In this document: positions 4,064-44,458 of the stretch, one piece after another | Position numbering within the stretch: the first letter of the stretch is position 1 | How the letters are laid out: the number at the start of each line of letters is the position of its first letter | NCBI GenBank assembly: GCA_000995185.1 | Contig: LCET01000001.1 | Span: 103,028-167,027 of the forward strand | Source: Candidatus Woesebacteria bacterium GW2011_GWC1_42_9 | GTDB lineage: Bacteria > Patescibacteriota > Microgenomatia > UBA8517 | DNA: 64,000 nucleotides | Direction: 5' to 3' | Translations under genes and position numbers: made by a program | Notes under the pieces: model-generated | What the model was told of the DNA's origin: nothing | The model's database searches: none | The model's input: the letters and a program-made list of their open reading frames with translations, nothing else

Positions 4064-4081
4064 GACAGTTATCCGCGGTAT

Positions 4082-12708: not shown

Positions 12709-12732
12709 TGTGTATAATCGACATGCAAAAAT

Positions 12733-15279
12733 ATGAAGAGTAGAGCAGTTCTCTTTCTGGCAATATTAGTTCCTATATTAATTGTTTTCAAGGCTTTTAT
12801 TTTTTCAGGAAATCGTTCTCTCGTTTATGGTGACGCTCCATACTTTACCAGTGAGGGATTAGAAGAATTATTATCTGAGCCATCGAGCTGGACGTATCGA
12901 GGTAATAATTTTGGGGAAGTTAATAACCTTCTTTGGCTCTCTCCATTAATGCTTTTATATGGGTTTTTACATTTGTTATTTGATTTCGGAAATGAGCTGA
13001 TTTTAATAGTCTTGTTTTATATTCCTTCGATACTTGCGGCTTTGGTGGGGACATTACTCTTTACTAGATTTTTAAAGCTATCGATAAAGGTACAATTTAT
13101 TACTTGTTTCTTTTACGTTTTTAATACTTTTTATTTATTAATAGTTGATGGTGGACAAGTGGGGATCGCATTGGCGTATGGATTGTTTCCTTTTGCGCTA
13201 CTTTATTTGGTTAAATATCTTAATAACCCTTCTCTGAATAGTTTTTTATTAGCCCTGGTATGGATTTCTTTGGTTTCTTTGGCAGACCCAAGATATGCAT
13301 TGATCGCGATTATTTTTAGTATCTTGTGGAATTTTTGGTCCTTCGATCCAAAAAAATTATTGTTATTACTCATAGCACTTTTTGGGATAAATATGTATTG
13401 GGTTTTTCCGTTAATAAAAACAGGGGGATTAACTACGGTATCTTCAGGAATGCAATTAATTAACTTCAAACATGGGCTCGCAGTCTTCCAGCCGCATTGG
13501 CCAGAAAATACTTTTGGAGTAATCACAGATCCGCCAATTTATTTTTATGGGATTTTCGGGCTGATTTTATTAGGTGTTTTATTAGGGAAGCATGGGCATA
13601 AACATAAAATAATATCATTATATTTGGTGTCCTTATTTTTGATTAAAGGTGGCTCGGGATTTTTAGGAAATTATTACAGTTGGATAATCAATAATTTCCC
13701 ATTTGCGGTATCCTTTAGGGATTCGACCAAATTTTCGGCTCCGCTGGTTTTATTTTCTGGAATATTAATTGGTTTATTAATTGAAAAAATTAATCGGAAA
13801 ATATTTTTGGCAGCCGTTTATCTTTATTTATTGTTTCTTCTGTCTCCCGCGATATGGGGATTAATGAATGGGGTATTGTCAGGTGGTTTAAATGACACTG
13901 ACATTAATAATGTTATTCGAGGCAAGACAGGGACCCGCTCAGTTTGGTTTCCAGAGAAATATCCTCTGGCTTACGAAACAGTTGATAACCAGGCGATAAA
14001 TGCAAAGGAGTTGGTTGATTTGCGTCCGATAGCTTCTATGAACGCAGGGACCTATGATAAATTTAATTTTTTACACAATGAAAAATCTTCAGAATGGTTG
14101 ACTCTTTTGGGGATTAATTATTTAGTTATTAATAAACCAGAAAATATTAATAATAACCAAAGAGAAGAGTGGAATAACCTCTTGGACTTAATTTCGTTGA
14201 ATAAAGAGTTTCGAGCAGTAAGCGGTGAAATTTATGAGATAACCTCTCCGTTGCCACGGCTATATGCCGCCGATCGTTTGTTAATAGTTGTTGGGGGAGA
14301 TGAAATATATAGTGAAGTTCCAAAATTGGCTGATCAGGCGGTAGTCTTTGTGGAAGACGGGAAATTTGATCCGAGATTACTCCAAGGGAAAGAGAAAGGA
14401 TCAGCGGTGCTAATTTTTAGTGGTAAAAAAGATATTGATTTAGAGATGAGCTTCTTACAGGAATATTTTATTTCCCCGAATAATCTGAAATATAACTGGG
14501 GGTATTATTCTTCGGATGATTATCTGCTTTGGAAATATCAACTTTTGATCAGAGATTTGAGTACCTTGGAATATGATTATGGGATTGGCACGCTTCTCTC
14601 GACTAACAAGAATGAAGAAATTTCCTATAACTTTACTGGACTTAATGATGGAGAATATGTACTTGCCATCAGGCAAATGGCAGTTAGTAATCCCGCAACT
14701 TCGGTGATAACCTTAGATCATCAACAGTGGGTGACCACTTTCCCTAAAAACAGTAAATTTGACTGGTTTACTGTGCCGGTGAAATTATCGGGTGAGGAGC
14801 ATCTATTCTCTCTGCAAAACGGAGAGGGCTCTCAGGTCTTTAACACCGTAGCTCTTATACCAAAGGAAGAATACGATAAAGCAATGACTCTGGCACAAAC
14901 ATATAAGGATCATTTTGGATCCATAGGTGGAAATGAATTAGCTTTAGAGGGAGTAAATAGTAATTGGCGCGAAATTCCATATGAAAAAATTAGTCCAACT
15001 TGGTATAAATTAGGGAATCCGAAAATTACAACCTGGATAGTTCTTACCGATAGTTTTCATCCAATGTGGCAGTTAAAAAGAGGACAGGTCGATCAGTTTG
15101 GTTCGTTTCCGGCTTATTCTGCGGTCAACGCCTTCTATATAGAGGATGATTGGAGAGATTTGGAAATCGTCTTTGGCGGTCAGAAGGAATTTCGCTGGGG
15201 CGTATATTATTCTGCCTTGACGATTTTGATGCTAGCCATTGTGTTTCTTTATCTCAAATCTCTAGACAGATATAATTGA
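12733..15279 (+). CDS. Large YfhO-like integral membrane protein (848 aa). It is the first gene of the 26-kb co-directional glycosylation array.
   Basis: Multi-TM N-terminal half. The C-terminus FHPMWQLKRGQVDQ...YIEDDWRDLEIVFGGQKEF plus a terminal TM helix is paralogous to the 6114 and 10795 C-termini. Confidence 0.55.
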   Translation: MKSRAVLFLAILVPILIVFKAFIFSGNRSLVYGDAPYFTSEGLEELLSEPSSWTYRGNNFGEVNNLLWLSPLMLLYGFLHLLFDFGNELILIVLFYIPSILAALVGTLLFTRFLKLSIKVQFITCFFYVFNTFYLLIVDGGQVGIALAYGLFPFALLYLVKYLNNPSLNSFLLALVWISLVSLADPRYALIAIIFSILWNFWSFDPKKLLLLLIALFGINMYWVFPLIKTGGLTTVSSGMQLINFKHGLAVFQPHWPENTFGVITDPPIYFYGIFGLILLGVLLGKHGHKHKIISLYLVSLFLIKGGSGFLGNYYSWIINNFPFAVSFRDSTKFSAPLVLFSGILIGLLIEKINRKIFLAAVYLYLLFLLSPAIWGLMNGVLSGGLNDTDINNVIRGKTGTRSVWFPEKYPLAYETVDNQAINAKELVDLRPIASMNAGTYDKFNFLHNEKSSEWLTLLGINYLVINKPENINNNQREEWNNLLDLISLNKEFRAVSGEIYEITSPLPRLYAADRLLIVVGGDEIYSEVPKLADQAVVFVEDGKFDPRLLQGKEKGSAVLIFSGKKDIDLEMSFLQEYFISPNNLKYNWGYYSSDDYLLWKYQLLIRDLSTLEYDYGIGTLLSTNKNEEISYNFTGLNDGEYVLAIRQMAVSNPATSVITLDHQQWVTTFPKNSKFDWFTVPVKLSGEEHLFSLQNGEGSQVFNTVALIPKEEYDKAMTLAQTYKDHFGSIGGNELALEGVNSNWREIPYEKISPTWYKLGNPKITTWIVLTDSFHPMWQLKRGQVDQFGSFPAYSAVNAFYIEDDWRDLEIVFGGQKEFRWGVYYSALTILMLAIVFLYLKSLDRYN

Positions 15280-15282
15280 AAT

Positions 15283-16569
15283 ATGTTAACGAGCCTTCGT
15301 GAATTTGGGTTCTCAGTTTTGAGGGCAAAAACTTTTCGACAGTCAGGGATAACCATGGTGGGGACTATTGTTACCGGGGTGCTTGGGATGGTGTTTTATA
15401 TTTTTATCGCACGAAGTCTTGGGCCCACTTCGTTTGGTTCATTTTCAGTAGCGATCAGTGTGATGACGATCATTGCTAGTTTTGGGGATGTTGGTACGAA
15501 TACCGGCTTAGTTAAATTTGTAGGCAAATACTATCGCAATGATGACGAAAAGGCCAAGAAATTTCTGAAGCTTGGTTTAGAAATTAAGATTTTGGTTTGG
15601 GTCTTGGTCTTGGCAATAGGGTTCCCGTTAACATCTTGGGTAGGTGGGTCATTATTTGGAAAACCTGAGCTAGTTGTTCCACTTCGGATTGCCTTGGTCG
15701 GGGTTGGTGGTGGGCTTTTGTATTCATATAGTGCCCACGCTGTTCAGGCAGTTCAAAAATTTTTCATTTGGAGCACTGTTGGTGTATCCATGAATGTTCT
15801 TCGTCTTTTTACGATGTTCGTTCTAATTTACCTTGGGCGATTAAATCTTTACACAGGCATCTGGTTATATTTTACGTTCCTTTTAGTTGGGTTTTTAGTT
15901 GGACTTGTATTTTTACCAAAGTTTCTATTTGTAAAAGGGGAGAAAAAAATTCTCGGGGAATTTTTGAAATTTAATAAATGGGTAGCAGTTTTTACGGTGG
16001 TGTCTGCACTGACTGCAAGACTTGATATGCTTATCACCGCTAGACTTCTTCCATTGGAAGAAGTGGGTATCTATTCTGTTGCCGTGAGCCTCTCAAGCAT
16101 TGTCCCTCAGATCGTCTATTCTCTGGGAATAGTTGCCGCTCCAAAATTATCCAGCTTTGGAAACAATGTCGAGGCTTTAAAATATCTCAAAAAATTACAA
16201 ATCTTTGTGGTCGGGCTAGCGATTGCTGGAGTAAGCATCGGTATTCCATTGTCAAGGATTATTATTCCGCTTTTTTATGGTGCAGAGTATTCAGGAAGTA
16301 TCGCTCCATTTGCAGTTTTATTATTAGCGCAGGCGGTCTTTTTGATCGCTGTTCCCTTTCATTCAGCAATTCTATATTACTTTTCTTATCCCAAATTGTT
16401 TGTGTGGATCACTTTTGGTCAGATGGTGATTGTGGGTACGCTTGGGTGGATCTTAGTTGGGATTTATGGGGCAATGGGCGTGGCCATTGCGATTCTGGTT
16501 AGTAATTTATTTAGTTTTACCGTTCCTGTGATTTGGGTCTACAGTAAATTTACTAAGCAGACTGATTAA
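15283..16569 (+). CDS. Wzx-type polysaccharide/oligosaccharide flippase (MOP superfamily, Polysacc_synt).
   Basis: About 12 TM helices. The N-terminus GTIVTGVLGMVFYIFIARSLGPTSFGSFSVAISVMTIIASFGDVGTNTGLVKFV is typical of this family. Confidence 0.65.
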   Translation: MLTSLREFGFSVLRAKTFRQSGITMVGTIVTGVLGMVFYIFIARSLGPTSFGSFSVAISVMTIIASFGDVGTNTGLVKFVGKYYRNDDEKAKKFLKLGLEIKILVWVLVLAIGFPLTSWVGGSLFGKPELVVPLRIALVGVGGGLLYSYSAHAVQAVQKFFIWSTVGVSMNVLRLFTMFVLIYLGRLNLYTGIWLYFTFLLVGFLVGLVFLPKFLFVKGEKKILGEFLKFNKWVAVFTVVSALTARLDMLITARLLPLEEVGIYSVAVSLSSIVPQIVYSLGIVAAPKLSSFGNNVEALKYLKKLQIFVVGLAIAGVSIGIPLSRIIIPLFYGAEYSGSIAPFAVLLLAQAVFLIAVPFHSAILYYFSYPKLFVWITFGQMVIVGTLGWILVGIYGAMGVAIAILVSNLFSFTVPVIWVYSKFTKQTD

Positions 16570-16571
16570 CG

Positions 16572-17420
16572 ATGACTACTATTACAGCTCATACTTTAGT
16601 TAAAAACGAGGCTAGATTTGTTTGGTTTTCGGTCATGTCCGTGATTGATTATGTTGATGAAGTTTTGCTTTGGGACACTGGAAGTACTGATGGTACAATT
16701 AAGATCCTTCAAGAAATTAAAAAGAGATACCCAGCAAAGGTTAAGTTAAGACTTTTTGGATCTGTTACGCCGGAAGAATTTACAATAGTTCGCCAAGACA
16801 TGCTTGATGTGACCGAGTCTGACTGGTTTTTGGTTGTTGATGGCGATGAGATTTGGTGGGATGAGTCCATCAAGAAAGTCACTGACTTTATTAGGAATAA
16901 CGCTCAAAAACATGATGCGGAGTCAATAATTACTCCCACAATAAATTTAGTTGGAGACATTTATCATTATCAAGAAAAAGAGGCGGGACAATATAAATTT
17001 GGGAGGAGGAAAGGACATTACAACTTGCGCGCTGTTAATAGAAACATTCCAGGGTTATCTTCAGATAAACCGCATGGCACATGGGGGTGGATAGATAATC
17101 AAGGCAGGATGATTCAGGATAGAAATTCAAGAAAGATAATTTTTATTGACGCGCCTTACGTGCATGCGACCTTTTTAAGGCGGGCAGGGGATAATAGTTT
17201 AGACAAAAATGTGCCTAAACGTACTGGGAAATTGAAACATGAAATAGGGATTTCTTTTCCAAGCGACTATTTTTATCCAGAAGTTTTTTTTAGAGAAAAG
17301 CCGGACTTTATTCGGTCTCCTTGGGAAACGATGTCGAAATTTTTTTTTGTTCGGGCGTTAGTCGAGACTCCGCTTCGAAAATTTAAGCGTCGTTATCTTC
17401 CGGGTAAAATTGGATATTGA
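16572..17420 (+). CDS. GT-A fold glycosyltransferase (GT2-like).
   Basis: HTLVKNEARFV...DEVLLWDTGSTDGT and DXD (VVDGDE) motifs. Confidence 0.6.
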   Translation: MTTITAHTLVKNEARFVWFSVMSVIDYVDEVLLWDTGSTDGTIKILQEIKKRYPAKVKLRLFGSVTPEEFTIVRQDMLDVTESDWFLVVDGDEIWWDESIKKVTDFIRNNAQKHDAESIITPTINLVGDIYHYQEKEAGQYKFGRRKGHYNLRAVNRNIPGLSSDKPHGTWGWIDNQGRMIQDRNSRKIIFIDAPYVHATFLRRAGDNSLDKNVPKRTGKLKHEIGISFPSDYFYPEVFFREKPDFIRSPWETMSKFFFVRALVETPLRKFKRRYLPGKIGY

Positions 17421-18237
17421 AATGAAAAAATGTGTAGTTTGTGAGTCAAAACAATGTGAGGCTCTTTTCATTATTGATGAAGTAAAAATTGTCAGATGTA
17501 GGGATTGTGGTTTAGTGAGGACTTTAGGGAAGGCAAAAATTAGTTATAAGGAGTATCATCGAGATGATGATTACGCCAAACACGAACAGCTATTTAGAAA
17601 CATATTTCATAAACGCTTTGATCGAGTAAAGAGGTATAAAAAGGGCGGGAGAGTGCTTGATATCGGGGCTTCTACGGGGACAATGCTTCAAATATTTAAA
17701 TTCCATGGATGGGATGTGTGGGGAGTAGAGCCATCAAATAGTGCCGAGGGATTATCGGAAAAAGGTATTAAGTGTACGAATTCGACTTTTGAAAAAGCTA
17801 AGTTGCCAACAAACTATTTTGATGTTGTGATAATTAACCACGTCTTGGAACATGTAGAAAATCCTGTCAGTTTCCTTGAAAAGGTTAATGAAGTTCTCAA
17901 AAAGGATGGGATAGTCTATGTAGATGTTCCAAACTTTGATAGCTTGATTTCAATGATTCGCGGCAAGAATTGGAAATATTTATCCCCTGGTGAACATCTT
18001 TATCACTTTACTCCAAAAACTCTTGAAAATACTCTTAAGAGAGCTGGCTTTGAGATCATTTGGTGTGGGACAAGTTCGGGCGTGTTTGATGTTGCCAGGC
18101 CATTATTAAAATTAGCTTATGAAGCTAGATATTTAAGGCGCAATTTTCTTTTTGATATATTTCGGGTCCCGCTTGATATAGCCTCCCAAATCTCAAACCG
18201 CGGCGCAAGTCTAGCGGTGATCGCCAAGAAAAGTTAA
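17410..18237 (+). CDS. Class I SAM-dependent methyltransferase with an N-terminal Zn-ribbon.
   Basis: CVVCES...CRDCG gives a CxxC...CxxC Zn-ribbon. VLDIGASTGTMLQ (motif I) and VIINHVLEHVENP (Methyltransf_11/23). Confidence 0.75.
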   Translation: MDIEMKKCVVCESKQCEALFIIDEVKIVRCRDCGLVRTLGKAKISYKEYHRDDDYAKHEQLFRNIFHKRFDRVKRYKKGGRVLDIGASTGTMLQIFKFHGWDVWGVEPSNSAEGLSEKGIKCTNSTFEKAKLPTNYFDVVIINHVLEHVENPVSFLEKVNEVLKKDGIVYVDVPNFDSLISMIRGKNWKYLSPGEHLYHFTPKTLENTLKRAGFEIIWCGTSSGVFDVARPLLKLAYEARYLRRNFLFDIFRVPLDIASQISNRGASLAVIAKKS

Positions 18238-18246
18238 AATATAACC

Positions 18247-19560
18247 GTGAAGAAGATAATAGCCCTACTTTTCGGGGTACATTTGTATTTGCTCTATAAT
18301 CTTCAGTTTACAGCTTGGCCCGAGATGTTTTCCTATCCCTATCTAGCCAATAACGGATTTTCATTGTATGGGGACATGATCATGCCATACCCGCCGCTTC
18401 TTATTTGGACCCTTCAAATTATTTATGCGCTTTTTGGGTACAACGTTTGGGTTGTAAAAGTATTTTCGTGGGTATTAATATTGACAAGTGATGTACTGAT
18501 CTTCCAAATCACAAAAATTATTACAAAAAATGAAAAATATGCACTCTTCAGTTTACTTGTTTATGTTTTATTAGAGCCTTTTTTAGAAGGAAATATGATA
18601 TGGTTTGATAATGTTGTGGTCTTGCCAATTTTGGGTGGTTTTTTCTTTCTTCTTCAGAAGAGTTACAGAAAAGCTGGTCTTATGCTGGGGATATCGGCGC
18701 TTATAAAGCAAACCACTGGAATTTATTTAATTTTCTCGGTTTGTTATCTGGCGGTAAATAAAAATTATAGAAGCATCCATAAATTGTTATTATTCCCATT
18801 TATTTTAGGAGTGTTTTTATTGGTCTGGCTTATTTCTACAGGTTCGCTTGATTGGTTTTTGAACTGGTTAATAATTTTTCCATCCACCAAGTGGGAGAGT
18901 TTTCCGGGTTACGTTCAATTTATCTTTACAAATTTTAATAAAGAAGTTTTGTTTTTTCTTTTTTTACCTGCGTTATTTTTGCGGGATAAGCTTTTATGGT
19001 TTTTTTTGATCGGGGGGCTAGTTGCGATTTATCCTCGTTTTTCTTTTTTCCATTTTCAAAGTGAGCTTGCCATCCTTACAATTTCGTACGGATTAATACT
19101 ATCAAAATCTAAATATAAAACCTTATTTCTGCCGATTATTTTGGCGGTGTTATTAATAATTAGACAGACGGTCTCACTGGACTGGAGAAAAGAGACAAAG
19201 TTTTTTGGGCGATCTGACCTGGTGGTGGCAGGTTTGATTACTACTGAAGTTCCTGAAGGCAATAGTGTTTATCTATTGGGACTGGATTCTTCGCTTTATG
19301 CCCTTAGCGATCGTCTTCCACCGAAGCCATGGTTTGATAATTTTGGATGGTACTTGGAGATAGAAGGAGTACAGGACGAAATATTGAAGCATTGGCAGGA
19401 AGACCAACCCAACTATATTATTTGGCGCACGCCAAGTCGTGGAAATTGGTTTGATCTTGGAGTCTATCAGCCTCGAAAAATTACAAATTGGATCGAGCTC
19501 TATTATACTAAGGATAAAGAGATAAGTTCAGGCATATTTTTATGGAAAAAAAGAAGCTAA
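18247..19560 (+). CDS. Polytopic membrane protein, putative GT-C-type glycosyltransferase.
   Basis: About 11 hydrophobic helices. Sits in a glycosylation operon. No specific family motif seen. Confidence 0.45.
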   Translation: MKKIIALLFGVHLYLLYNLQFTAWPEMFSYPYLANNGFSLYGDMIMPYPPLLIWTLQIIYALFGYNVWVVKVFSWVLILTSDVLIFQITKIITKNEKYALFSLLVYVLLEPFLEGNMIWFDNVVVLPILGGFFFLLQKSYRKAGLMLGISALIKQTTGIYLIFSVCYLAVNKNYRSIHKLLLFPFILGVFLLVWLISTGSLDWFLNWLIIFPSTKWESFPGYVQFIFTNFNKEVLFFLFLPALFLRDKLLWFFLIGGLVAIYPRFSFFHFQSELAILTISYGLILSKSKYKTLFLPIILAVLLIIRQTVSLDWRKETKFFGRSDLVVAGLITTEVPEGNSVYLLGLDSSLYALSDRLPPKPWFDNFGWYLEIEGVQDEILKHWQEDQPNYIIWRTPSRGNWFDLGVYQPRKITNWIELYYTKDKEISSGIFLWKKRS

Positions 19561-20576
19561 AAATTGTTTTTTTAAATATTTATCAAGGGAGTGTGAATCG
19601 CGGTGCTGAGACATTTACGGAGGAGCTTTCTAAGAAGCTGGAGAAATATTTTGATCTCGAGGTAATTTCAGGTAAACGAAAACTTATAAAAAGATTGCCT
19701 GTAATTTGGAGATTTTTTTTGGATCCGCAGGGGATGATTGTGTTTTGGTGGAGTTTACGAATGCTTCCGAGGGTAATTCGTGAAAGGCCGGATATTATTA
19801 TTCCTTTGAATGGCGGATGGCAGGCATTGCTTATGAGATTTTTAACATGGGCTTATGGAGGAAAACTGGTGATAGTTGGGCAATCGGGGATTGGTTGGGA
19901 TGATCGGGTCAATTTATGGTCTATGCCCAATCATTTTGTAGGAATATCTAAAAAGGCTAGTCTGTGGTCAAAAAAGGTGAATCCTATGGTTAGTTCCCAA
20001 TATATCCCGAATGGGGTAGATCTGGAAAAATTTAAACCAGGCGGGCGTGTATTTCAGCATGGTTTGAAGGGGAAAGTGATTTTGTGCGTGGGAGCATTAG
20101 TCCCGAGCAAGCAAATTGATAAGGCAATTTTGGCTGTTAGTAAGCTTAAGCAAGTTAGTCTACTTATCGCGGGCGATGGTCCGCAGAATGAGGGGCTTTT
20201 AGCTCTTGGCAGGGAATCACTTGGGAGAAGAAGGTTTAAGCTCGTTTCTGTTACCCACGAGATGATGCCTGAAATCTATCGTTCTGCTGATATTTTTGTA
20301 TTTACTCCGGAAAGATCAGAAGCTTTTGGAATTGTTTATGTTGAGGCTATGGCCTCAGGATTGTCAGTTGTGGCCACTGACGACCCTATTCGAAGAGAAA
20401 TTGTTGGGAATGCGGGACTATTTGTGGACCCTAATAATATGGAAGAATATGCCAGGATTATCAGGAGGGCTTTGGAGATGAAATGGGGAAATAAACCCAG
20501 AATCCAAGCACAAAAATATTCTTGGGACAAAATTGCTGAAAAGTATGAGAAATTATTCTCAAGTTTATATAAATGA
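19542..20576 (+). CDS. GT4 family glycosyltransferase (GT-B fold).
   Basis: C-terminal FVFTPERSEAFGIVYVEAMASGLSVVATDDPIRREIVGNAGLFVDPNN matches the GT4 EX7E region. Confidence 0.8.
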   Translation: MEKKKLKIVFLNIYQGSVNRGAETFTEELSKKLEKYFDLEVISGKRKLIKRLPVIWRFFLDPQGMIVFWWSLRMLPRVIRERPDIIIPLNGGWQALLMRFLTWAYGGKLVIVGQSGIGWDDRVNLWSMPNHFVGISKKASLWSKKVNPMVSSQYIPNGVDLEKFKPGGRVFQHGLKGKVILCVGALVPSKQIDKAILAVSKLKQVSLLIAGDGPQNEGLLALGRESLGRRRFKLVSVTHEMMPEIYRSADIFVFTPERSEAFGIVYVEAMASGLSVVATDDPIRREIVGNAGLFVDPNNMEEYARIIRRALEMKWGNKPRIQAQKYSWDKIAEKYEKLFSSLYK

Positions 20577-29803: not shown

Positions 29804-29805
29804 GC

Positions 29806-31008: not shown

Positions 31009-31864
31009 ATTATCAATAATTATAGTTAGTTATAATACCAAAAAGTTGTTAAATGATTGCCTTCATTCATTGGAAAAGGTTGCTAGGGAAGCCGATTTTG
31101 AAGTAGTAGTTTGCGATAATCGGTCTGTTGACGGGAGCGTAGACATGATTAAAAAAAGTTTTCCTTGGGTAAAATTAATTGTTAATGATAATAATTTAGG
31201 CTTTGCTAAGGGCAATAATGTTGCCAGAGGAATAGCCTTAGGTAAATATATTTTATTTTTAAATCCAGATACTTTAGTATTTCCCGGTGCAATTGGGAAG
31301 ACAATTTCATATTTAGATACTCATAAGGAGGTGGGGGCGATCACTTGTAAAGTGGTCTTACCAAATGGCAAGCTCGATAAAGATACGAGGCGATCCTTCC
31401 CTACTCCCTGGGTAGCACTCACCCACTTTTCGGGATTAGATCGCGTTTTTCCTAAGTCTAAAATCTTCTCGAAATATTGGTATGGGTATTTGAGCGCATC
31501 TTTCGAGCATGAAGTGGAAGTATTGCAAGGAGCATTTTTTATGACTAGAAAAAAGATCTTGGATAAAGTTGGCTGGTTTGACGAGGACTATTTCTTGAAT
31601 GGTGAAGACATTGATCTTTGCTGGAGGATAAAATTACTGAAGTATAAAATTATCTATTTCCCGGAAGTTAAAATTATTCACCTTAAAAAGGGTTCGAAGA
31701 AAAAAGCAAAAAGTTTGAAAATTGAGCTTGCCGGAGTGGAAGCGATGGAGATTTTCTATCGAAAAAGACTTTGGAAACGCTATTCTCTATTAACAAGTTA
31801 TTCAGTAATTTTTGGGATAAAAATAATTAAATTAGTAAGACTTGTGAAATATTACTTTCTATGA
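30992..31864 (+). CDS. GT2 family glycosyltransferase.
   Basis: LSIIIVSYNTKKLLNDCLHSL...VVVCDNRSVDGS and DEDYFLNGEDIDLCWR. Confidence 0.8.
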   Translation: MGKTAKLSIIIVSYNTKKLLNDCLHSLEKVAREADFEVVVCDNRSVDGSVDMIKKSFPWVKLIVNDNNLGFAKGNNVARGIALGKYILFLNPDTLVFPGAIGKTISYLDTHKEVGAITCKVVLPNGKLDKDTRRSFPTPWVALTHFSGLDRVFPKSKIFSKYWYGYLSASFEHEVEVLQGAFFMTRKKILDKVGWFDEDYFLNGEDIDLCWRIKLLKYKIIYFPEVKIIHLKKGSKKKAKSLKIELAGVEAMEIFYRKRLWKRYSLLTSYSVIFGIKIIKLVRLVKYYFL

Positions 31865-32985
31865 AGATTTTATTGGACGCAAGGCTCTATGGACTTGAGA
31901 ACGCGGGGCTTGGAAGGTATGCGATTAATCTGATTAGGGAGCTCCAGAGAATAGATAAAAAGAATGATTACGCGGTTCTTTTGAGAAAAAAGTACTTTGA
32001 TGAATTGAAGCTTGGGAATAATTGGAAAAAAATATTAGCGGACTTTCGGCATTATAGTGCGAAAGAACAGTTATTGCTTCCAAAAATAATCTCAAATTAT
32101 GGCCCCGACATGGCCCATTTTTTACACTTCAATGTACCTATCTTTTATAGAGGAAAATTTGTTGTTACGATTCACGACCTTTTGATGCATAAAGAAAAGG
32201 GTAAACGCTCTACTACTCTGCCGGCTTACGCTTATCACATCAAAAGAGCTGGCTATAAATTAGTTTTTCATAGAGCCGCGAAAAGGGCATCCCAGATTAT
32301 TGTCCCAAGTAATGACGTGGCCAGCGAGGTAATTTCATACTATCATCTTGGCGCTGATAAAGTTCGAGTGATATATGAGGGTGTTGATCCGAGAATTTCA
32401 GTAAATAGATATGTGGCGAAGGCACTCACGAAGTTTTCTCTAGACCGTCAATATTTTATGTATGCCGGGAATGTTTTTCCTCACAAAAATATTGAGCGGG
32501 CACTGGAAGCAGTTTCATTGATCAAGACAAAAGAAGGAAAAACGCCAATTTTGCTTGTGATTACCAAAGAAAGTGAATTTAGTAAAAGATTAATGAGCAC
32601 TGCGATTAGGATGAGGACTGAGGAATTTTTAAAAATAATCAGTCAGGTTAGTGATGAGGAGCTTGGTACATTGATGAAAAATTCGTTAGGGTTTATTTTC
32701 CCCTCATTATCTGAAGGTTTTGGCCTCCCCGGGCTTGAAGCAATGAGCATCGGTACGTTAGTTTTAGCTTCAGACATTCCCGTCTTTAGGGAAATTTACA
32801 AGGATAACGCGATATATTTTAACCCGTACGATTTCTCCTCGATTAGGGGTTCTATGCAGACAGTTATCGATATGAAGGAGGGCGACAGGAAGAGGAGAAT
32901 TAGCGAGGGTAAGAAATTTACTAAAAGATATTCATGGGAGAAAACTGCCAGAGCGACATTGAAAGTATATGAAAAAACTGCATAA
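31861..32985 (+). CDS. GT4 family glycosyltransferase.
   Basis: FIFPSLSEGFGLPGLEAMSIGTLVLASDIPVFREIYKDNAIYFNP. Confidence 0.8.
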   Translation: MKILLDARLYGLENAGLGRYAINLIRELQRIDKKNDYAVLLRKKYFDELKLGNNWKKILADFRHYSAKEQLLLPKIISNYGPDMAHFLHFNVPIFYRGKFVVTIHDLLMHKEKGKRSTTLPAYAYHIKRAGYKLVFHRAAKRASQIIVPSNDVASEVISYYHLGADKVRVIYEGVDPRISVNRYVAKALTKFSLDRQYFMYAGNVFPHKNIERALEAVSLIKTKEGKTPILLVITKESEFSKRLMSTAIRMRTEEFLKIISQVSDEELGTLMKNSLGFIFPSLSEGFGLPGLEAMSIGTLVLASDIPVFREIYKDNAIYFNPYDFSSIRGSMQTVIDMKEGDRKRRISEGKKFTKRYSWEKTARATLKVYEKTA

Positions 32986-32994
32986 TGGCAGCTA

Positions 32995-34071
32995 ATGAGG
33001 ACGGTGATTGTCTATGATCGGGTAAATAAGTGGGGCGGGGCAGAGAGACTACTTTTGTCTTTAAATAAAATATTTCCCGAGGCTCCTCTTTATACTTCTG
33101 TTTATTCTCCAGACAGCGCTAAATGGGCAAAAGCTTTTCCAAAAGTATCCCCAAGCTTTCTGCAAAAAATTCCGGGAGCTTTAAATAATCACGATAAATT
33201 GGCACTACTTATGCCTTTGGCATTTGAATCGTTTGATTTTAGGGAGTTTGATTTAGTGATCAGTGTAACAAGTGAGGCCGCCAAGGGGATTATTACACGT
33301 CCTGAAACAAGGCATCTTTGTATTTGTCTGACGCCAACGAGGTACTTATGGAGCGGATATGATGACTATTTCAACACTTTAATGAAAAAAAGTGTCTCGA
33401 AAATTGCAGTAGATTACTTGAGGAATTGGGACAAAGTAGCTGCCCAGCGGCCAGACACGATGATCGCTATCTCCAAAGAAGTGCAAAAGAGGATAAAAAA
33501 ATACTATGGGAGAGAGTCGGAAGTTATTTATCCCCCGGCCGGCGAATTAAAAACTAATAATTTAAAATTAAAAATTAATACACATGATTATTTTTTGATT
33601 GTTTCCAGATTGGTTTCATATAAAAGGGTGGACTTGGCAATTAAGGTATTTAATGAATTGGATTTACCATTAGTGATCGTTGGTACTGGAAGTGAAGAGC
33701 GAAAATTAAGACAGATGTCAAAGAAGAATATTATTTTTACAGGGCGATTGACAGAGAGCGAGCTTGCCAATTACTATTATAGAAGCAAGGCTTTGGTATT
33801 TCCGCAAAAGGAGGACTTGGGGTTGGTCTCCCTGGAAGCACAAAATTTTGGTAAGCCGGTTATAGCTTTTTATGGCGGAGGGGCCAAGGAAACAGTGATA
33901 AATAATAAAACCGGTGTATTTTTTTACACGCAAAGTGTGAGTGAACTAAAGAATGCCCTGAAAAAGTTCTCGGGAATGAAGTTTAGCGAGAAAATTATCA
34001 AGAAAAACAGCGCCAGATTTTCTGAAAAGCGATTTAAGATAGAATTATTGAAGAGGATAAAAAATGTCTGA
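32995..34071 (+). CDS. GT4 family glycosyltransferase.
   Basis: LVFPQKEDLGLVSLEAQNFGKPVIAFYGGGAKETVINNKTGVFF. Confidence 0.75.
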   Translation: MRTVIVYDRVNKWGGAERLLLSLNKIFPEAPLYTSVYSPDSAKWAKAFPKVSPSFLQKIPGALNNHDKLALLMPLAFESFDFREFDLVISVTSEAAKGIITRPETRHLCICLTPTRYLWSGYDDYFNTLMKKSVSKIAVDYLRNWDKVAAQRPDTMIAISKEVQKRIKKYYGRESEVIYPPAGELKTNNLKLKINTHDYFLIVSRLVSYKRVDLAIKVFNELDLPLVIVGTGSEERKLRQMSKKNIIFTGRLTESELANYYYRSKALVFPQKEDLGLVSLEAQNFGKPVIAFYGGGAKETVINNKTGVFFYTQSVSELKNALKKFSGMKFSEKIIKKNSARFSEKRFKIELLKRIKNV

Positions 34072-35182
34072 AGAGAATTATAAAAAGCATTTATATGCGT
34101 TGATACTTGCCGGTGGTGGCGGCACAAGATTGTGGCCTCGTTCTCGGGAGAAAACTCCAAAGCAGTTTTTAAAATTATTTGGCGGGAAGACCCTCACACA
34201 GATTACTGCTAAAAGGTTTCGCAAGATATTACCTTGGCAGAGGATATATTGTGTAACTGTTTCGGATGCATATAAGCGCGAGCTTCTTAGGGAGTTACCT
34301 GGCTTTGTTCCTGGAAATATCATCGTTGAGCCAGCTCGGAGGGAAACCGGGCCTGCTCACGGAATTGGAGCAGTTTATATCCAAAATAGGGATCCTGATG
34401 CGGTGATAATTACCGAGTCGGTCGATAGGCTTGTGAAACCGGTCCCAACTTATTTAAAAACGCTAAAAGTAGCCGCGCAAGTGGCCTATGACCAAAAGGT
34501 GATGGTCGCCATCGGAGTTGAGCCCCGCTACCCGAACGTCGGCTATGGGCATATAAAGAAGGGGGCAGAAATTGATAAAGTTAACGGCGTTAAATTTTTT
34601 AAGCTTGAGAAATTTGTAGAAAAGCCTCCTCTGGCGTTGGCTAAGAAATATACTTCTTCTGGAAAGTATTTATGGAATGCAGGGCAATTTGTGTGGAGGG
34701 CGGACGTCCTTCTTGCTTCGATAAAGAAACATGAGCCAAAGATATCTTCAGCACTTGATAAAATTTCTGGGGCAATAGGGACTGAAAATGAAAAGGAAAT
34801 GGTTGCCCGCGTATATAAAAGTATGCCCAAAATATCGATTGATTACGCCGTGGCAGAGAGAGATCGCAATTTTGTACTCGTGTCAGCCGACTTTTTCTGG
34901 ACGGATATAGGTGACTGGAAAGAGGTATGGGAAAATCTAGCGAAGGATAATGTTGGGAACGTGATCATTGATGGTGATGAGCCTGGCGGAGAGGTGATAA
35001 ATATTGATACTTCTGATGCTTTAGTCCACAAAGACGGGCGCTTGATCGCCTTGGTTGACGTTGACAATATTATCATTGTAGATACCAAAGATGCCCTGTT
35101 GGTTTGCTCAAAGAGCATGGCCCAAAATGTAAAAAAGATTGTCCAGGAACTTAAAGAGCGAAAGGACACAAGTTTGTTATAA
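34064..35182 (+). CDS. Mannose-1-phosphate guanylyltransferase (NTP_transferase plus ManC C-terminal domain).
   Basis: N-terminal ALILAGGGGTRLWPRSREKTPKQF and overall ManC/CpsB-like layout. Confidence 0.75.
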   Translation: MSEENYKKHLYALILAGGGGTRLWPRSREKTPKQFLKLFGGKTLTQITAKRFRKILPWQRIYCVTVSDAYKRELLRELPGFVPGNIIVEPARRETGPAHGIGAVYIQNRDPDAVIITESVDRLVKPVPTYLKTLKVAAQVAYDQKVMVAIGVEPRYPNVGYGHIKKGAEIDKVNGVKFFKLEKFVEKPPLALAKKYTSSGKYLWNAGQFVWRADVLLASIKKHEPKISSALDKISGAIGTENEKEMVARVYKSMPKISIDYAVAERDRNFVLVSADFFWTDIGDWKEVWENLAKDNVGNVIIDGDEPGGEVINIDTSDALVHKDGRLIALVDVDNIIIVDTKDALLVCSKSMAQNVKKIVQELKERKDTSLL

Positions 35183-35201
35183 TATCCCGCTGCCCAAGAA
35201 G

Positions 35202-35843
35202 ATGTTATATTTTTTTGTCAAAAGGACGATAGATATATTTGGATCCCTGTTTTTGTTGGCGATCTTTTTTCCTTTGTTGATTGCGGTTGCCATCATCATT
35301 AAATTAACCTCAAATGGTCCCTTATTTGCAGATACGCCAAAACGCGTGGGGAAAAGAGGAACACCTTTTTTTGCATATAAATTTCGTTCGATGATCGTTA
35401 ACGCCCACAAACTCCTAAGGACCGACCCGAAGTATAAAAGTGCTTTAAAAGAGCTTGAACAAGGGGGAAATTATAAAATAAAAAGGGATCCGCGGGTCAC
35501 TCCAATCGGTAGAATAATCAGAAAACACTCTATCGATGAAATACCCCAGCTTTTTAACGTCCTAAAGGGAGAGATGAGTATTGTCGGCCCGAGACCTTAT
35601 TATCAGGAAGAATTAGTTAAGCAGCAAGAAAAATTTCCGGGGACCGAGGGCTATGTCAAAGAAATGCTCAAAGTTAAGCCTGGGATAACCGGCTATTGGC
35701 AAGTGACGGGGAGAAGCGATGTCGCCTTTGATAAAAGGATCGAAATGGACGCATACTATGCCAAAAGGCGATCAGTTTTACTGGATATTTTGATATTATT
35801 AAAGACGCCATGGGTGATGATCTCGGGGAAAGGAGCTGCCTAA
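35202..35843 (+). CDS. Initiating sugar-1-phosphate polyprenyl-phosphate transferase (Bac_transf/WbaP C-terminal domain type).
   Basis: KRTIDIFGSL...PLFADTPKRVGKRGTPFFAYKFRSM...DPRVTPIGRIIRKHSIDEIPQLFNVLKGEMSIVGPRP. The ORF track start is 35139; the Met at 35202 follows the upstream stop. Confidence 0.85.
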   Translation: MLYFFVKRTIDIFGSLFLLAIFFPLLIAVAIIIKLTSNGPLFADTPKRVGKRGTPFFAYKFRSMIVNAHKLLRTDPKYKSALKELEQGGNYKIKRDPRVTPIGRIIRKHSIDEIPQLFNVLKGEMSIVGPRPYYQEELVKQQEKFPGTEGYVKEMLKVKPGITGYWQVTGRSDVAFDKRIEMDAYYAKRRSVLLDILILLKTPWVMISGKGAA

Positions 35844-35852
35844 TAGTGTAAT

Positions 35853-37823
35853 ATGAATGACATGCCTCAAATTAATTTTGAAGAGTCCCTAGTCCAAATT
35901 AAGCCGGATGAGAAACCTATAAAAAGATTTAGGTTTTGGAAGTTCCATCGCCCTGGAAAAAGGATTTTGATCGGTTTATCGCTTGCCTTTGTCGTTTTAT
36001 TTGTTCTTATCCTATTTCCCGCTCTTCGGGTTTATCGAAGCGGCATGGTCTTGGCAGAGAGCGCCAGGCGTGCAAAAGACTCCGTGAACAGCCAGGATAT
36101 CACGGTTGTAAGAGGCGAGCTTAATAATTTTAAGGGTGATTTGGAGAGTTTTCAGGGCGCCTACAGATGGTTTGGCTGGGTGCAATACATCCCCTGGGCG
36201 GGGAGATACTGGAAAGACGGTAATGCAGGGATAAAGGCAGGACTTCATGGATTAGCCGCGGCAGATAAAGTGATTGAAACACTGTCCCCGTATGCGGATA
36301 TTATCGGCTTTGCCGGACCAGAGAGCGATACTGCTCAAAGCGGGGAAGATACCGCAAATGACCGGATTGAGTTTTTGGTACAGTCGGTTGAGCAAATAAC
36401 TCCTCAGATTGATGGAATTTCCGCCGAAGCCCAAGCCGCCGTCGCAGAATTATCTAAAATCGATCCAAACCGGTACCCAAAGGAATTTAGGGGAATTCCC
36501 GTCCGCGAAAAACTAAAAAACGGGATAAACCTGGCGATAGTTGGCGCCGGCTTTGTTTCAAAGTCAAAACCTTTGATGGAGGCCGCCCCATATATGCTTG
36601 GGATGGACGAAGAGCGCACGTATTTGGTTCTTTTCCAAAATGACAAAGAGCTAAGACCGACTGGCGGATTTATCACCGCCTACTCGATCATGACAGTAAA
36701 AAATGGGAAAGTAAGCCAGGTGAATTCGAGCGATATATATCATTTGGATAATGCCTACCGGCCAGTCGTTCCTGCTCCGGACCCGATCATTAATTACATC
36801 AAGGGAGTTTATGCGGCTTTGGATAAGTTTCGCTTAAGAGACATGAATTGGTCGCCTGATTTCCGAGAAAGCATGGACCTGTTTATGAACGAGGCCGAGA
36901 AGGCCGGGATTGAGGATATCGATGGTGTGATCGCGGTTGATACTCATGTTGTAGTTAATCTTCTTAAGGCGATCGGGCAGATTGGTGTGCCAGGATTTGG
37001 CAATTTTAGCGCTGAAAATGATGAGCGCTGTAATTGCCCGCAGGTAGTTTATGAGCTGGAAAGCTTTGCAGACGTGGAGGGGCCGGTTGTTTGGAGTGAA
37101 AATGAGCCGGAGAAGATCGTCTTTGCTCCCCCAAATTATGATAATCGCAAAAAAATTGTCGGTCCTTTGATGAATTCACTTTTGGGAAATGCCTTGGGAC
37201 AACCAAAGGAAAAGCTACCGGATCTTTTTGAAGCCGCGTGGGATTCGATCAATGAAAAGCATGTCCTGATTTACATGTTTGATGAAAATGCCCAAAAGGG
37301 AGTGGAGAGCTTTGAAATCGCCGGTAGAATTAAAGATATTGAGGGCGACTATCTACATATAAATGATGCTAATTTAGGGGGCAGGAAGTCAAACATGTAT
37401 GTCACCCAAGAAGTATCCCAGGACGTAGATATTGCCCGAGACGGCACAGTTACAAAAACACTAAGCATTACCTATAAAAACCCTCAGGACTACGATGGCT
37501 GGCTTAATTCGGTCCTCCCTAATTGGACGAGAATTTATGTGCCGAGAGGGAGTGAACTCGTTTCCGTTGACGGATTTGACGATGAAGGGGAGACCTATGA
37601 GGAGCTTGGCAAGACTGTCTTTTCCGGAGGATTTGAGCTTCGTCCTCAAGGCATAAAGCAGATAATCATTGTCTATAAATTGCCTTTTAAAGTAAGCGAT
37701 GATTACTGGGTTTACTTGCAAAAACAGCCCGGGACGGATATGCCGCTCTATGTCGTTAATGTTGGTGGGAAAACTGAAGAGCTATTTCTTAAAACTGACC
37801 AACACCTGAAGTTTTCGATCTAA
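35853..37823 (+). CDS. N-terminally TM-anchored large extracytoplasmic protein, probably DUF4012 family.
   Basis: A single N-terminal TM helix. LRPTGGFITAYS motif. Positioned next to the priming sugar transferase, as in other polysaccharide loci. Confidence 0.5.
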   Translation: MNDMPQINFEESLVQIKPDEKPIKRFRFWKFHRPGKRILIGLSLAFVVLFVLILFPALRVYRSGMVLAESARRAKDSVNSQDITVVRGELNNFKGDLESFQGAYRWFGWVQYIPWAGRYWKDGNAGIKAGLHGLAAADKVIETLSPYADIIGFAGPESDTAQSGEDTANDRIEFLVQSVEQITPQIDGISAEAQAAVAELSKIDPNRYPKEFRGIPVREKLKNGINLAIVGAGFVSKSKPLMEAAPYMLGMDEERTYLVLFQNDKELRPTGGFITAYSIMTVKNGKVSQVNSSDIYHLDNAYRPVVPAPDPIINYIKGVYAALDKFRLRDMNWSPDFRESMDLFMNEAEKAGIEDIDGVIAVDTHVVVNLLKAIGQIGVPGFGNFSAENDERCNCPQVVYELESFADVEGPVVWSENEPEKIVFAPPNYDNRKKIVGPLMNSLLGNALGQPKEKLPDLFEAAWDSINEKHVLIYMFDENAQKGVESFEIAGRIKDIEGDYLHINDANLGGRKSNMYVTQEVSQDVDIARDGTVTKTLSITYKNPQDYDGWLNSVLPNWTRIYVPRGSELVSVDGFDDEGETYEELGKTVFSGGFELRPQGIKQIIIVYKLPFKVSDDYWVYLQKQPGTDMPLYVVNVGGKTEELFLKTDQHLKFSI

Positions 37824-38620
37824 TGATCTGGGAGGAGATTTTTGCAAGCGGGGACACTTCCTACTCCGAGTCAGGTAAGACCCAAAATCAGCTTTTTGAG
37901 CTAGTTAAGCTTCGTTTCTTAATTACGATTTTTCCAAAAAAACATTCTCTAATTCTTGAGGTTGGCTGCGGCGCGGCCCGGACTTCGCTTTATTTTGCCA
38001 AAAGGGGACATGAGACTACTTTACTTGATCAAAGTGATGAAGTTTTAAAAATCGCCAAGGAAAATTATAAAAAAGAAAAAGCAAAAGGAAAATTTGTCGT
38101 CGGGGATGCTGAAAAATTACCGTTTGATAGTAACCAATTTGATGTTGTGATGAGCTTTGGATTGTTGGAGCATTTTAGGAAGCCTGAGATAGTGATCACT
38201 GAAATGGTAAGGGTGCTTAAACCCGGTGGATTGTTTTTTGCGGACATTGTCCCCAAACGATTTTCGGTGCAATCGATTGGCAATGTTATCAACTTTATTT
38301 TTTCAATAATTTACTGGACTATAAAATTAAAGCCACTTGTGGGAATTAAAAGAGGGATGCGGAATTTCAGGCCGCTTTATTATGAAAATGCCCTTTCCTG
38401 GATGAAATACAAAAAAATAATGGAGGAGGCAGGAGCAAAGGGCATAAAAGTACGCGGCAACCGTCCCTGGCCGAGACTTACTCTGCCGATGGCAGCAGAT
38501 AGACTTTATGCGGGAGTATTAAAGCCGACGATGCTTTTTTGGAGAAAATTTGACACATGGGATAATTTTTTCCCTCGCTTCTGGGGAGCCGGCTGGTGGT
38601 TCTGGGGAATAAAGCGATAA
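37823..38620 (+). CDS. Class I SAM-dependent methyltransferase (Methyltransf_11).
   Basis: ILEVGCGAARTSLYFAKRGHETTLLDQS...FDVVMSFGLLEHF. The start overlaps the upstream stop (TAATG). Confidence 0.75.
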   Translation: MIWEEIFASGDTSYSESGKTQNQLFELVKLRFLITIFPKKHSLILEVGCGAARTSLYFAKRGHETTLLDQSDEVLKIAKENYKKEKAKGKFVVGDAEKLPFDSNQFDVVMSFGLLEHFRKPEIVITEMVRVLKPGGLFFADIVPKRFSVQSIGNVINFIFSIIYWTIKLKPLVGIKRGMRNFRPLYYENALSWMKYKKIMEEAGAKGIKVRGNRPWPRLTLPMAADRLYAGVLKPTMLFWRKFDTWDNFFPRFWGAGWWFWGIKR

Positions 38621-38677
38621 TTTGGTATAATTTCGCAAACCAAGTCAAGCGGAGGTTAAAATGAATAGCAAAAGTAA

Positions 38678-38710
38678 GCCCTCGAGATGCGTCCCGAGGG
38701 CATTTGTTTT
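38678..38710 (+). terminator. Rho-independent terminator closing the 26-kb glycosylation array.
   Basis: GCCCTCG-(10 nt loop)-CGAGGGC, a perfect 7-bp GC-rich stem, followed by ATTTGTTTT. Confidence 0.6.
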
Positions 38711-38744
38711 GAAGGGCCACCTTTCGGCGTAGTAGAATCGCTGT

Positions 38745-40409: not shown

Positions 40410-40410
40410 T

Positions 40411-41517: not shown

Positions 41518-41551
41518 AATGATAGGTGCGCCGGCTTCACTGGTATGAGAT

Positions 41552-43718: not shown

Positions 43719-43742
43719 CAAATAATATCAAACTGCTCAAAT

Positions 43743-43832: not shown

Positions 43833-43847
43833 TTGGAGGTGATTAAA

Positions 43848-44382: not shown

Positions 44383-44403
44383 AAAATATATATAGATTTG
44401 GAT

Positions 44404-44434: not shown

Positions 44435-44458
44435 ACCAAACTAAAAGAAAGGATATGA

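Follow-up and report, generated by a model that had tools for sequence, protein, structure and literature searches.

A long array of glycosylation genes lies at positions 12733–38620 of the window examined here, a 64,000-nt stretch (positions 103,028–167,027, forward strand) of contig LCET01000001.1 from Candidatus Woesebacteria bacterium GW2011_GWC1_42_9, a groundwater member of the candidate phyla radiation (CPR, Patescibacteria). The listing of open reading frames (ORFs) resolves the array into an unbroken series of 23 plus-strand genes placed back to back. A first-pass annotation, made from the sequence alone, had described an all-plus-strand run over this interval, which is borne out, and had put it at about 25 genes, a number that now drops to 23. 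When the best-supported start codons are used, neighbouring genes overlap by 1–26 nt at 15 of the 22 junctions, including the previously reported TAATG at 37823 that joins genes 22 and 23, and are separated by 2–19 nt at the other seven. The frequent overlaps thus stand, but the upper limit of 10 nt given earlier for the gaps does not hold throughout; with the start of gene 21 at ATG 35202, for example, genes 20 and 21 lie 19 nt apart. For gene 5, public gene callers place the start at 18382, which would give a 144-nt gap, whereas we took GTG 18247 because homology to relatives runs from residue 4 onwards. Alternative ORF or called starts also exist for genes 4 (17410/17422), 15 (28316/28346) and 21 (35139/35202). 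With none of its 22 junctions exceeding 19 nt, the array is packed more tightly than the DNA downstream of it, where gaps reach 740 nt.

By Pfam, the earlier family tally is correct: the array encodes six GT4 and four GT2 glycosyltransferases, a flippase, a Wzy-like protein, ManC, a priming transferase, two methyltransferases, an acetyltransferase and a DUF4012 protein. The four GT-C membrane enzymes counted earlier are also recovered, three of them as PMT_2-type proteins by Pfam and the fourth as gene 1, through the match of its AlphaFold (AF2) model to AftD. Gene 1 (12733–15279) encodes an AftD-like GT-C protein of 848 aa with ~12 transmembrane (TM) segments, an ectodomain carrying a CBM6/35-like β-sandwich and a C-terminal TM anchor, as judged from the model and Foldseek. 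It is followed by gene 2, a MOP-family (Wzx-type) flippase with ~11 TM segments (15283–16569; PF01943, 85.3 bits against a cut-off of 28.2), and gene 3, a soluble GT2 of the GT-A type (16572–17420; PF00535), whose identity is 59–61% in three relatives and 41% in a fourth (locus L082). Gene 4 is a SAM-dependent methyltransferase of the Methyltransf_23 family (17422–18237 with the called start; PF13489, E = 8.3e-29) that is kept in relatives, gene 5 a PMT_2/GT87-like GT-C (18247–19560; PF13231, 29.1 bits, and PF09594) and gene 6 a GT4 of the GT-B type (19542–20576; PF00534, E = 2.9e-28). Gene 7, a GT2 with a C-terminal TM segment at residues 222–240 (20573–21412; PF00535, E = 3.5e-33), lies directly upstream of the PMT_2-type GT-C gene 8 (21409–22770; PF13231, 32.5 bits). 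Its matches in the PDB include DPMS (5mlz), ArnC and GtrB among generic GT-A matches, and it is a candidate polyprenyl-phosphate-sugar synthase. Within its coding sequence, positions 20694–20720 form a perfect 11-bp inverted repeat, TTGACAAGACG-gagag-CGTCTTGTCAA (−16.5 kcal/mol). Two further GT4 genes, 9 (22754–23824; PF00534, PF13439) and 10 (23808–24935; PF00534, E = 6.1e-31), precede gene 11, a WcaF-like hexapeptide O-acetyltransferase (24932–25543; PF00132; NF007797 at E = 8.8e-31, under the curated cut-off), and its conserved partner gene 12 (25540–26070), a 176-aa protein with two TM helices and without a Pfam or NCBIfam match; this pair recurs in relatives at 40–55% identity.

The second half of the array starts with gene 13, a GT2 with a C-terminal TM segment at residues 270–288 (26055–26969; PF00535, E = 3.6e-24), and gene 14, a membrane protein with a Wzy_C domain (26908–28359; PF04932, 40.3 bits against a cut-off of 31.7), which has orthologues in 46 related loci and no match in NCBIfam or among PDB sequences. 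Residues ~375–390 of gene 14 form a conserved loop, ATDNDYLRxLGExGILG. At this position WaaL/PglL-type enzymes presumably carry H-N-x-Y-L-x(4)-E-x-G-x-x-G; if so, Asp would replace the catalytic His in gene 14, which would argue against a canonical WaaL-type ligase. Gene 15 is a GT-C of the PMT_2/PMT type (28346–29803; PF13231, E = 1e-13, and PF02366) with an invariant D39-W40-H41...R44-Q45-D47 signature after TM1. Genes 16 (29806–31008; PF13692, PF13439), 18 (31861–32985; PF00534, E = 1.1e-22) and 19 (32995–34071; PF00534, E = 1.2e-26) are GT4 enzymes, the first being 60–67% identical in many relatives, and gene 17 (30992–31864; PF00535, E = 5.8e-22) is a GT2. Gene 20 is a ManC-type mannose-1-phosphate guanylyltransferase (34064–35182; PF00483, PF22640), which remains under the cut-off of TIGR01479 (E = 4e-85) because it has no PMI domain. 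Gene 21 is the priming enzyme, a small monotopic polyprenyl-phosphate phosphoglycosyl transferase (PGT) of 213 aa (35202–35843; PF02397, E = 2.2e-60, 203.7 bits against a cut-off of 27), matching only the C-terminal catalytic domain of WbaP/exopolysaccharide sugar-transferase models. The array closes with gene 22, the DUF4012 protein (35853–37823; family membership and model), and gene 23, a lineage-specific Methyltransf_11 methyltransferase (37823–38620; PF08241, E = 3.3e-27). No tRNA was found by ARAGORN, and Rfam at gathering thresholds gave no match, hence no riboswitch or leader RNA, in the whole window.

The AF2 model of gene 1 (pLDDT 76.6, pTM 0.71) has as its top Foldseek matches in the PDB the mycobacterial arabinofuranosyltransferase AftD (6wby/6w98; E = 1.5e-8, TMq 0.51), with CBM6/35/16 modules, matched by the ectodomain, next. 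The predicted combination of a polytopic N-terminal module with an extracytoplasmic domain agrees with the GT-C fold. G33 and D34 are invariant in 15 homologues, ~10 residues past TM1, and we infer a catalytic role for this acidic residue, D34, in the first extracytoplasmic loop. At the sequence level gene 1 has no match in Pfam or the PDB and only a sub-threshold MmpA fragment in NCBIfam; likewise, PDB sequence and profile searches with gene 14, gene 15 and the DUF4012 protein gave nothing meaningful. Orthologues of gene 1 (33–43% identity) occupy the same position in relatives, as do those of its divergent, conserved partner (35–43%), a GT-C-like polytopic membrane protein of 637 aa and 11 TM segments encoded on the minus strand (10795–12708; PF10131/PTPS_related, 30.5 bits). 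Next to the latter is an additional minus-strand GT-C of the TMEM260/PMT_2-like type (9485–10831; PF11028, PF13231). Further upstream, Pfam and TM prediction define a plus-strand block (4082–9550) encoding a 682-aa polytopic protein with 9 TM segments and a C-terminal discoidin (F5/8-C) domain, a 1009-aa protein and a 136-aa protein with 3 TM segments. The 1009-aa protein shares the architecture of gene 1 (~12 TM segments, ectodomain, C-terminal TM). We do not claim paralogy of gene 1 with it or with PTPS_related, because pairwise BLASTP revealed only marginal C-terminal similarity (E = 0.02–0.04). Positions 1040–4063 hold genes for an FkbM methyltransferase (minus strand), a UDP-GlcNAc 2-epimerase and a GT2 (Pfam). 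The glycan region thus reaches upstream to ~1040 and includes four GT-C-like membrane proteins beyond the set noticed at first, so that up to eight GT-C-like proteins may be encoded between 4082 and 29803. The whole glycan locus, ~37 kb with at least 30 genes, takes up ~4% of a genome of ~0.7–1 Mb.

The distribution of the array was explored by a genome scan (one genome per species) with the DUF4012 protein as query, which retrieved 71 loci with proteins of 33–62% identity, almost all from Woesebacteria or Microgenomates. BLASTP of the locus ORFs against the window proteins revealed a recurring order: acetyltransferase, 176-aa protein, GT2, Wzy, GT-C, GT4, GT2, GT4, GT4, nucleotidyltransferase, PGT, DUF4012, RecO, histidyl-tRNA synthetase (HisRS), the protein labelled unk242, MraZ, MraW and penicillin-binding protein (PBP). 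Identities along this order are 45–70%, and the array proteins have diverged about as much as RecO, HisRS and PBP. From Wzy to RecO, the family order is exactly that of the window in 31 of the 47 loci spanning this segment, and most of the others differ by the presence or absence of one or two genes; a single GT4 or GT2 is occasionally gained or lost. The upstream half is also syntenic in three related loci (L077, L081 and L082). A metagenome scan with gene 5 as query yielded six loci, three of them useful. The upstream order in relatives is F5/8-C protein, 1009-aa protein, 136-aa protein, PTPS_related (minus strand), gene 1, Wzx where present, GT2, methyltransferase, GT-C, GT4, GT2, GT-C, GT4, GT4, acetyltransferase, 176-aa protein, GT2 and Wzy, of which the part from the F5/8-C protein to gene 1 is kept in both L081 and L082. 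Two slots are less stable. In L081 and L082 the Wzx position lacks this gene or carries a replacement, and the nucleotidyltransferase slot is bimodal: part of the relatives have a ManC orthologue (50–71% identity), whereas 25 of 62 have a protein only 20–40% identical (L009, L013, L018, L021 and others). This split points to non-orthologous replacement, and some members of the class may use a different activated sugar.

Hypervariability is typical of O-antigen and capsule loci. The class-wide conservation of gene order therefore argues against a strain-variable locus of this kind, and we rejected the idea of a hypervariable O-antigen- or capsule-like island, given the identical Wzy–RecO order in 31 of 47 loci and the synteny of the upstream half. 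The same comparisons bear on the integrity of the contig, a chimera within the array having been named with the first-pass annotation as one finding that would undo it. GC content does vary along the window (0.33–0.46), with genes 1–19 at 0.35–0.41 and the more GC-rich 3′ genes, from ManC to RecO, HisRS and PBP, at 0.41–0.47, as could be expected of a chimeric assembly. However, exact copies of the DUF4012 protein occur on 18 contigs and of the gene 8 protein on 19, with identical neighbours. These contigs reach lengths of up to 0.7 Mb and originate from different groundwater samples and several assembly sources (ENA, JGI and Logan). The DUF4012 protein is 100% identical to one from Candidatus Woesebacteria bacterium GW2011_GWB1_43_14, and the same gene order is present in complete genomes of relatives, e.g. 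CP055307 and CP066693. An assembly artefact is so improbable in the face of these independent contigs that we regard it as ruled out.

The earlier interpretation of the array was that of a single operon with translational coupling and one closing terminator. An intrinsic-terminator-like hairpin with a T-tract, detected by folding, does follow gene 23 (38678–38710, plus strand), and it reads as a terminator on both strands. Its stem-loop (38678–38701) has 10 bp, 7 of them G-C, and an energy of −15.2 kcal/mol, followed by ATTTGTTTTG. No other intergenic hairpin in 12000–57000 carries a T-tract, which upholds the earlier description, except that hairpins of similar energy with T-rich tails also occur within genes, at 37958 (gene 23) and 20686 (gene 7). 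In the relatives the picture is different. DUF4012 is directly followed by RecO in 66 related loci with a median gap of 5 nt, often with overlap, and the tight junctions have no hairpin; a few relatives with long DUF4012–RecO spacers carry one there. For gene 23, tblastn finds only loci of the same genome and none of the 71 related loci. Gene 23 and the closing terminator are thus private to this lineage and, because DUF4012 abuts RecO in relatives, tight packing evidently also joins functionally unrelated genes. Furthermore, the plus-strand run extends ~18 kb past the array to 56783 and takes in RecO, a restriction-modification island, HisRS and the division and cell wall (dcw) genes. With GC skew positive over the entire length of the window, co-directionality is a property of the chromosome arm. 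Since all genes between 12733 and 56783 share the plus strand, we rejected co-directionality as a signal specific to operons.

Generic sigma-70-like and terminator-like matches inside the array occur at the level expected from shuffled sequence, and Shine-Dalgarno-like motifs precede only 2–3 of the 23 array starts. A search of the internal regions, which had been put forward earlier as a check, thus gives nothing at the level of generic counts, but exact TATAAT hexamers are found 5–7 nt before 5 of the 53 starts in the window (genes 2, 10 and 16, HisRS and PP2C) against ~0.08 expected, and the three within the array compare with an expectation of ~0.03. All on the plus strand, the internal boxes lie 6 nt before the Wzx ATG (15271–15276), where a leaderless promoter is a candidate, 7 nt before the ATG of gene 10 (23795–23800) and 5 nt before that of gene 16 (29795–29800). 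A sigma-70-like site matching at 10 of 12 positions, TTGAAA-16-CATAAT (32959–32986), ends 8 nt before the ATG of gene 19. Outside the array, −10 boxes precede HisRS (46423–46428), PP2C (51859–51864) and RecO (38733–38738), the last belonging to a promoter-like TTGAAG-18-TAGAAT (38709–38738) that ends 6 nt before the GTG and served as our reference for leaderless geometry. Genes 1 and 15, both GT-C, end with Tyr-Asn-stop, and their final two sense codons read TATAAT (15271–15279 and 29795–29803).

In the relatives, −10-like hexamers before 886 start codons peak at a 6-nt spacer (4.6% against ~0.4% at internal ATG codons) and are enriched before ManC, PGT, DUF4012, RecO and HisRS; such a box lies at 4–9 nt from RecO in 33% of relatives and 10–20 nt upstream of HisRS in 62%. 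TATAAT also ranks first among 20 composition-matched A3T3 hexamers near starts. Two observations pull in the other direction: AT-rich hexamers are enriched near starts in general, which weakens the inference of promoters, and the relatives have no −10-like enrichment before genes 14, 16 and 18, where the box is poorly conserved. The box geometry would fit leaderless or near-leaderless internal promoters, a suggestion only, and internal promoters in the array are plausible but unproven. The −10 boxes at housekeeping genes, together with the scarcity of Shine-Dalgarno motifs, suggest widespread leaderless transcription in this Woesebacterium; a literature search on leaderless transcription in Patescibacteria found nothing relevant. 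At the head of the array, the start codons of gene 1 (12733, plus) and PTPS_related (12708, minus) are only 24 nt apart (12709–12732; the spacer is 27–238 nt in relatives), so both divergent promoters must overlap coding sequence. A TATAAT located there (12713–12718), 14 nt upstream of the gene 1 ATG, is the candidate −10 box of the array.

Taken as a whole, the idea of a single 26-kb operon with one terminator that encodes a classical Wzx/Wzy heteropolysaccharide of the O-antigen or capsule type is backed by the 23 closely packed co-directional genes, by internal promoter and terminator counts at shuffle expectation, by the position of the only intergenic hairpin after gene 23 and by the joint presence of PGT, Wzx and Wzy_C. 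It is nevertheless quite improbable, as its markers are unspecific: the terminator and gene 23 are lineage-specific, the array of relatives runs into RecO, the co-directional run reaches 56783, and TATAAT boxes and a sigma-70-like site stand before internal genes. As for the product, a Wzz-type polysaccharide co-polymerase (PCP) is missing, and genomes of different species keep the gene order. Transcription of the array probably yields a long polycistronic RNA starting in the 12690–12720 region, supplemented by internal, possibly leaderless, promoters, rather than following the pattern of one sealed operon.

DUF4012 is a large family, with 11,719 representatives of 50%-identity clusters at E up to 1e-3, and is reportedly enriched in CPR and Gram-positive bacteria (PMC6744442). 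In the exopolysaccharide (EPS) cluster of Bifidobacterium longum 105-A, too, it is encoded directly after the priming transferase (PMC5412050). The model of gene 22 (pLDDT 80, pTM 0.78) has an N-terminal TM segment, a helical stalk of ~200 residues, an α/β domain and a β-sandwich, and R268, D330, D336 and R432 are invariant. Among the top 13 Foldseek matches in the PDB, nine are LytR-Cps2A-Psr (LCP) ligases, which were checked as LCP by sequence, with weak E-values of 1e-3 to 2e-2. Sequence comparisons did not reproduce this resemblance: PF03816 matched none of 32 DUF4012 members even at E up to 10, a DUF4012 profile found no LCP chain among PDB sequences, and hhalign of DUF4012 against LCP sequences or profiles (the LCP gene of pNZ4000 aligned with close homologues) gave probabilities of 1.3–21.6%, aligning only the TM helix or one 26-residue motif. 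Just one segment, DIDGVIAVDT..LLKAIGQIGVP, is paired by hhalign with the LCP strand-helix-GG motif, at 1.3% probability. On a Lactiplantibacillus EPS plasmid no LCP gene was found. Judging from the model, DUF4012 may be considered a candidate extracytoplasmic LCP-like transfer or assembly factor, while its being an LCP-like ligase that supplies the missing attachment step has a low probability. A bolder, rather unlikely proposal is that the array and the upstream GT-C block build the main secondary cell-wall glycopolymer of Woesebacteria, an arabinogalactan- or lipomannan-like heteroglycan assembled in part outside the membrane by up to eight GT-C enzymes, with DUF4012 as a diverged LCP-type phosphotransferase that would attach the polyprenyl-diphosphate-linked polymer to peptidoglycan. 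It would explain why DUF4012 always follows the priming transferase in CPR and Bifidobacterium, why the locus contains no canonical LCP and why it is fixed beside the dcw cluster.

The gene inventory supports the original idea of a large Wzx/Wzy-type pathway with unusually many GT-C enzymes for a methylated and acetylated surface glycan. We consider it probable that the array is the core of a hybrid envelope-glycan pathway, combining Wzx/Wzy-type with GT-C steps, that is conserved across Candidatus Woesebacteria and is not a variable capsule or O-antigen island. The gene families are observed, and the steps proposed for them are deduced from these assignments. GDP-mannose would be supplied by ManC and a further sugar nucleotide by the upstream UDP-GlcNAc 2-epimerase, while the FkbM methyltransferase and GT2 of the same upstream segment may add modifications or precursors. 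Gene 21 would prime polyprenyl phosphate at the cytoplasmic face, where the six GT4 and the soluble GT2 enzymes could build a lipid-linked oligosaccharide, to be methylated by the Methyltransf_23 enzyme and O-acetylated by the WcaF-like protein. The MOP/Wzx flippase would then move it across the membrane, and the Wzy_C protein would polymerize the units or pass them to an acceptor. Outside, gene 1 and the three PMT_2 enzymes, probably with up to four upstream GT-C-like proteins, may extend or branch the glycan, using polyprenyl-phosphate sugars made by the adjacent TM-anchored GT2 enzymes (gene 7 before gene 8, gene 13 near gene 15). DUF4012, always paired with PGT, might act in a late assembly or attachment step at the outer face, and peptidoglycan, lipid or protein could each serve as the acceptor.

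Several points weigh against this hybrid pathway. Pfam searches of the 23 array proteins and the flanking genes found no Wzz or tyrosine-kinase family, i.e. no Wzz/CpsC-CpsD co-polymerase. None of 20 proteins searched against NCBIfam reached a curated or equivalog cut-off, and therefore neither specific enzyme names nor sugar specificities can be assigned. The polyprenyl-phosphate-sugar synthase role of the GT2 enzymes relies on generic GT-A similarity plus a TM segment. The Wzy_C domain is common to Wzy, WaaL ligases and PglL-type oligosaccharyltransferases; that of gene 14 does not separate a polymerase from a ligase or O-oligosaccharyltransferase, so that gene 14 could be of either type. 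The neighbouring dcw genes are equally syntenic, and the order of the array may partly reflect the high general synteny of small genomes. CPR bacteria have been reported to lack isoprenoid synthesis (PMC5220378), which makes the source of the lipid carrier puzzling. Finally, some relatives lack Wzx at this position or have it replaced; a single linear pathway is therefore not proven, and two or three separate glycosylation systems may be combined in the array.

In its most explicit form, the last idea would have a Wzx/Wzy system for a lipid-linked oligosaccharide co-located with two or three independent GT2 plus GT-C three-component modules that mannosylate or glycosylate proteins (pilins, S-layer, lipoproteins) or lipids, like actinobacterial Pmt or Gtr/YfhO. 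The recurrent proximity of GT2 and GT-C genes (7 before 8, 3 near 5, 13 near 15) and the unstable position of Wzx are in line with it, as are the presence of ManC and the fact that the PMT_2, PMT and TMEM260 families include protein O-mannosyltransferases; the internal promoter candidates would permit separate units. We still consider it unlikely, since Pfam detects no GtrA-type small flippase in the array or the flanking genes, the block keeps its order as one unit, and the resemblance of gene 1 to the polysaccharide-building AftD with its carbohydrate-binding module (CBM) suggests a glycan rather than a protein acceptor.

The hybrid pathway that we favour combines features of several known systems, and its enzyme families are all familiar, with nothing mechanistically unprecedented. 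Like the Wzx/Wzy loci of S. pneumoniae (cps) and enterobacterial O-antigens, the array has a Bac_transf priming enzyme, many GT-A and GT-B enzymes, a MOP flippase, Wzy_C, sugar-nucleotide supply, O-acetyl and methyl modification and tight co-directional packing. It differs in lacking Wzz/CpsCD and a recognizable LCP (CpsA), with DUF4012 in their place, in the 4–8 embedded GT-C enzymes, and in its class-wide order and fixed position beside RecO, HisRS and the dcw genes. With actinobacterial arabinogalactan and lipomannan/lipoarabinomannan synthesis (AftA-D, Emb, MptA/B and PimE with Ppm1; Lcp1) it would share, by analogy, the logic of a cytoplasmic polyprenyl-linked start followed by extracytoplasmic GT-C elongation and branching, besides the fold match of gene 1 to AftD with its CBM, the GDP-mannose supply, candidate membrane-bound GT2 polyprenyl-phosphate-sugar synthases and a core conserved envelope role. 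However, gene 1 and AftD are only ~10% identical, a resemblance at the level of the fold, and the array has no arabinose (DprE/UbiA) or galactofuranose genes, carries a Wzx/Wzy-type pair instead of an ABC transporter and belongs to a CPR host with a ~1-Mb genome. The three-component systems (GtrA/GtrB/GtrC; CsbB/GtcA/YfhO) have in common with it the location of C-terminal-TM GT2 genes beside GT-C genes; here, by contrast, no GtrA flippase is detected, the likeness of the GT2 proteins to GtrB, DPMS and ArnC is generic, and the modules sit inside a far larger array. The EPS/capsule cluster of B. longum 105-A (cpsD-DUF4012-wzz; PMC5412050) shares the succession of priming transferase and DUF4012 within a polysaccharide cluster, but it has Wzz, is a variable EPS island flanked by insertion sequence elements and contains no GT-C series.

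Literature searches for this cluster in Woesebacteria, Microgenomates, CPR and Patescibacteria retrieved no description of it, and the formation and structure of the envelope have remained unclear for all CPR studied (PMC5220378). For the principal surface glycoconjugate, through which the episymbiotic lifestyle is mediated, this locus offers a concrete candidate, and DUF4012, a large CPR-enriched family, gains a testable role. The results also call for caution when the packing of genes in ultra-compact genomes with possible leaderless promoters is taken as a sign of operons.

The array sits upstream of RecO, HisRS and mraZ/mraW/PBP, and some features of this neighbourhood are worth recording. 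Between RecO and HisRS, positions 39312–43018 hold a restriction-modification or defence island that is absent from all related loci and encodes an EcoRI-like adenine methyltransferase (PF13651, E = 1.8e-143), a GmrSD_N plus HNH nuclease and a 488-aa DUF8370 protein. The RecO–HisRS interval is a variable hotspot in relatives as well (median 1.6 kb, interquartile range 258–6338). The strongest local hairpin in 12–57 kb (43800–43835; 12-bp stem, −20 kcal/mol), for which there is no Rfam match, lies in a 740-nt stretch (43719–44458) containing only two small called ORFs of 84 and 96 aa. Within the dcw cluster, a 912-aa protein (52795–55533), apparently two fused Mur ligases, contains two sets of Mur-ligase middle and C-terminal domains along with a MurD-like N domain and has counterparts of 40–49% identity in four related loci.

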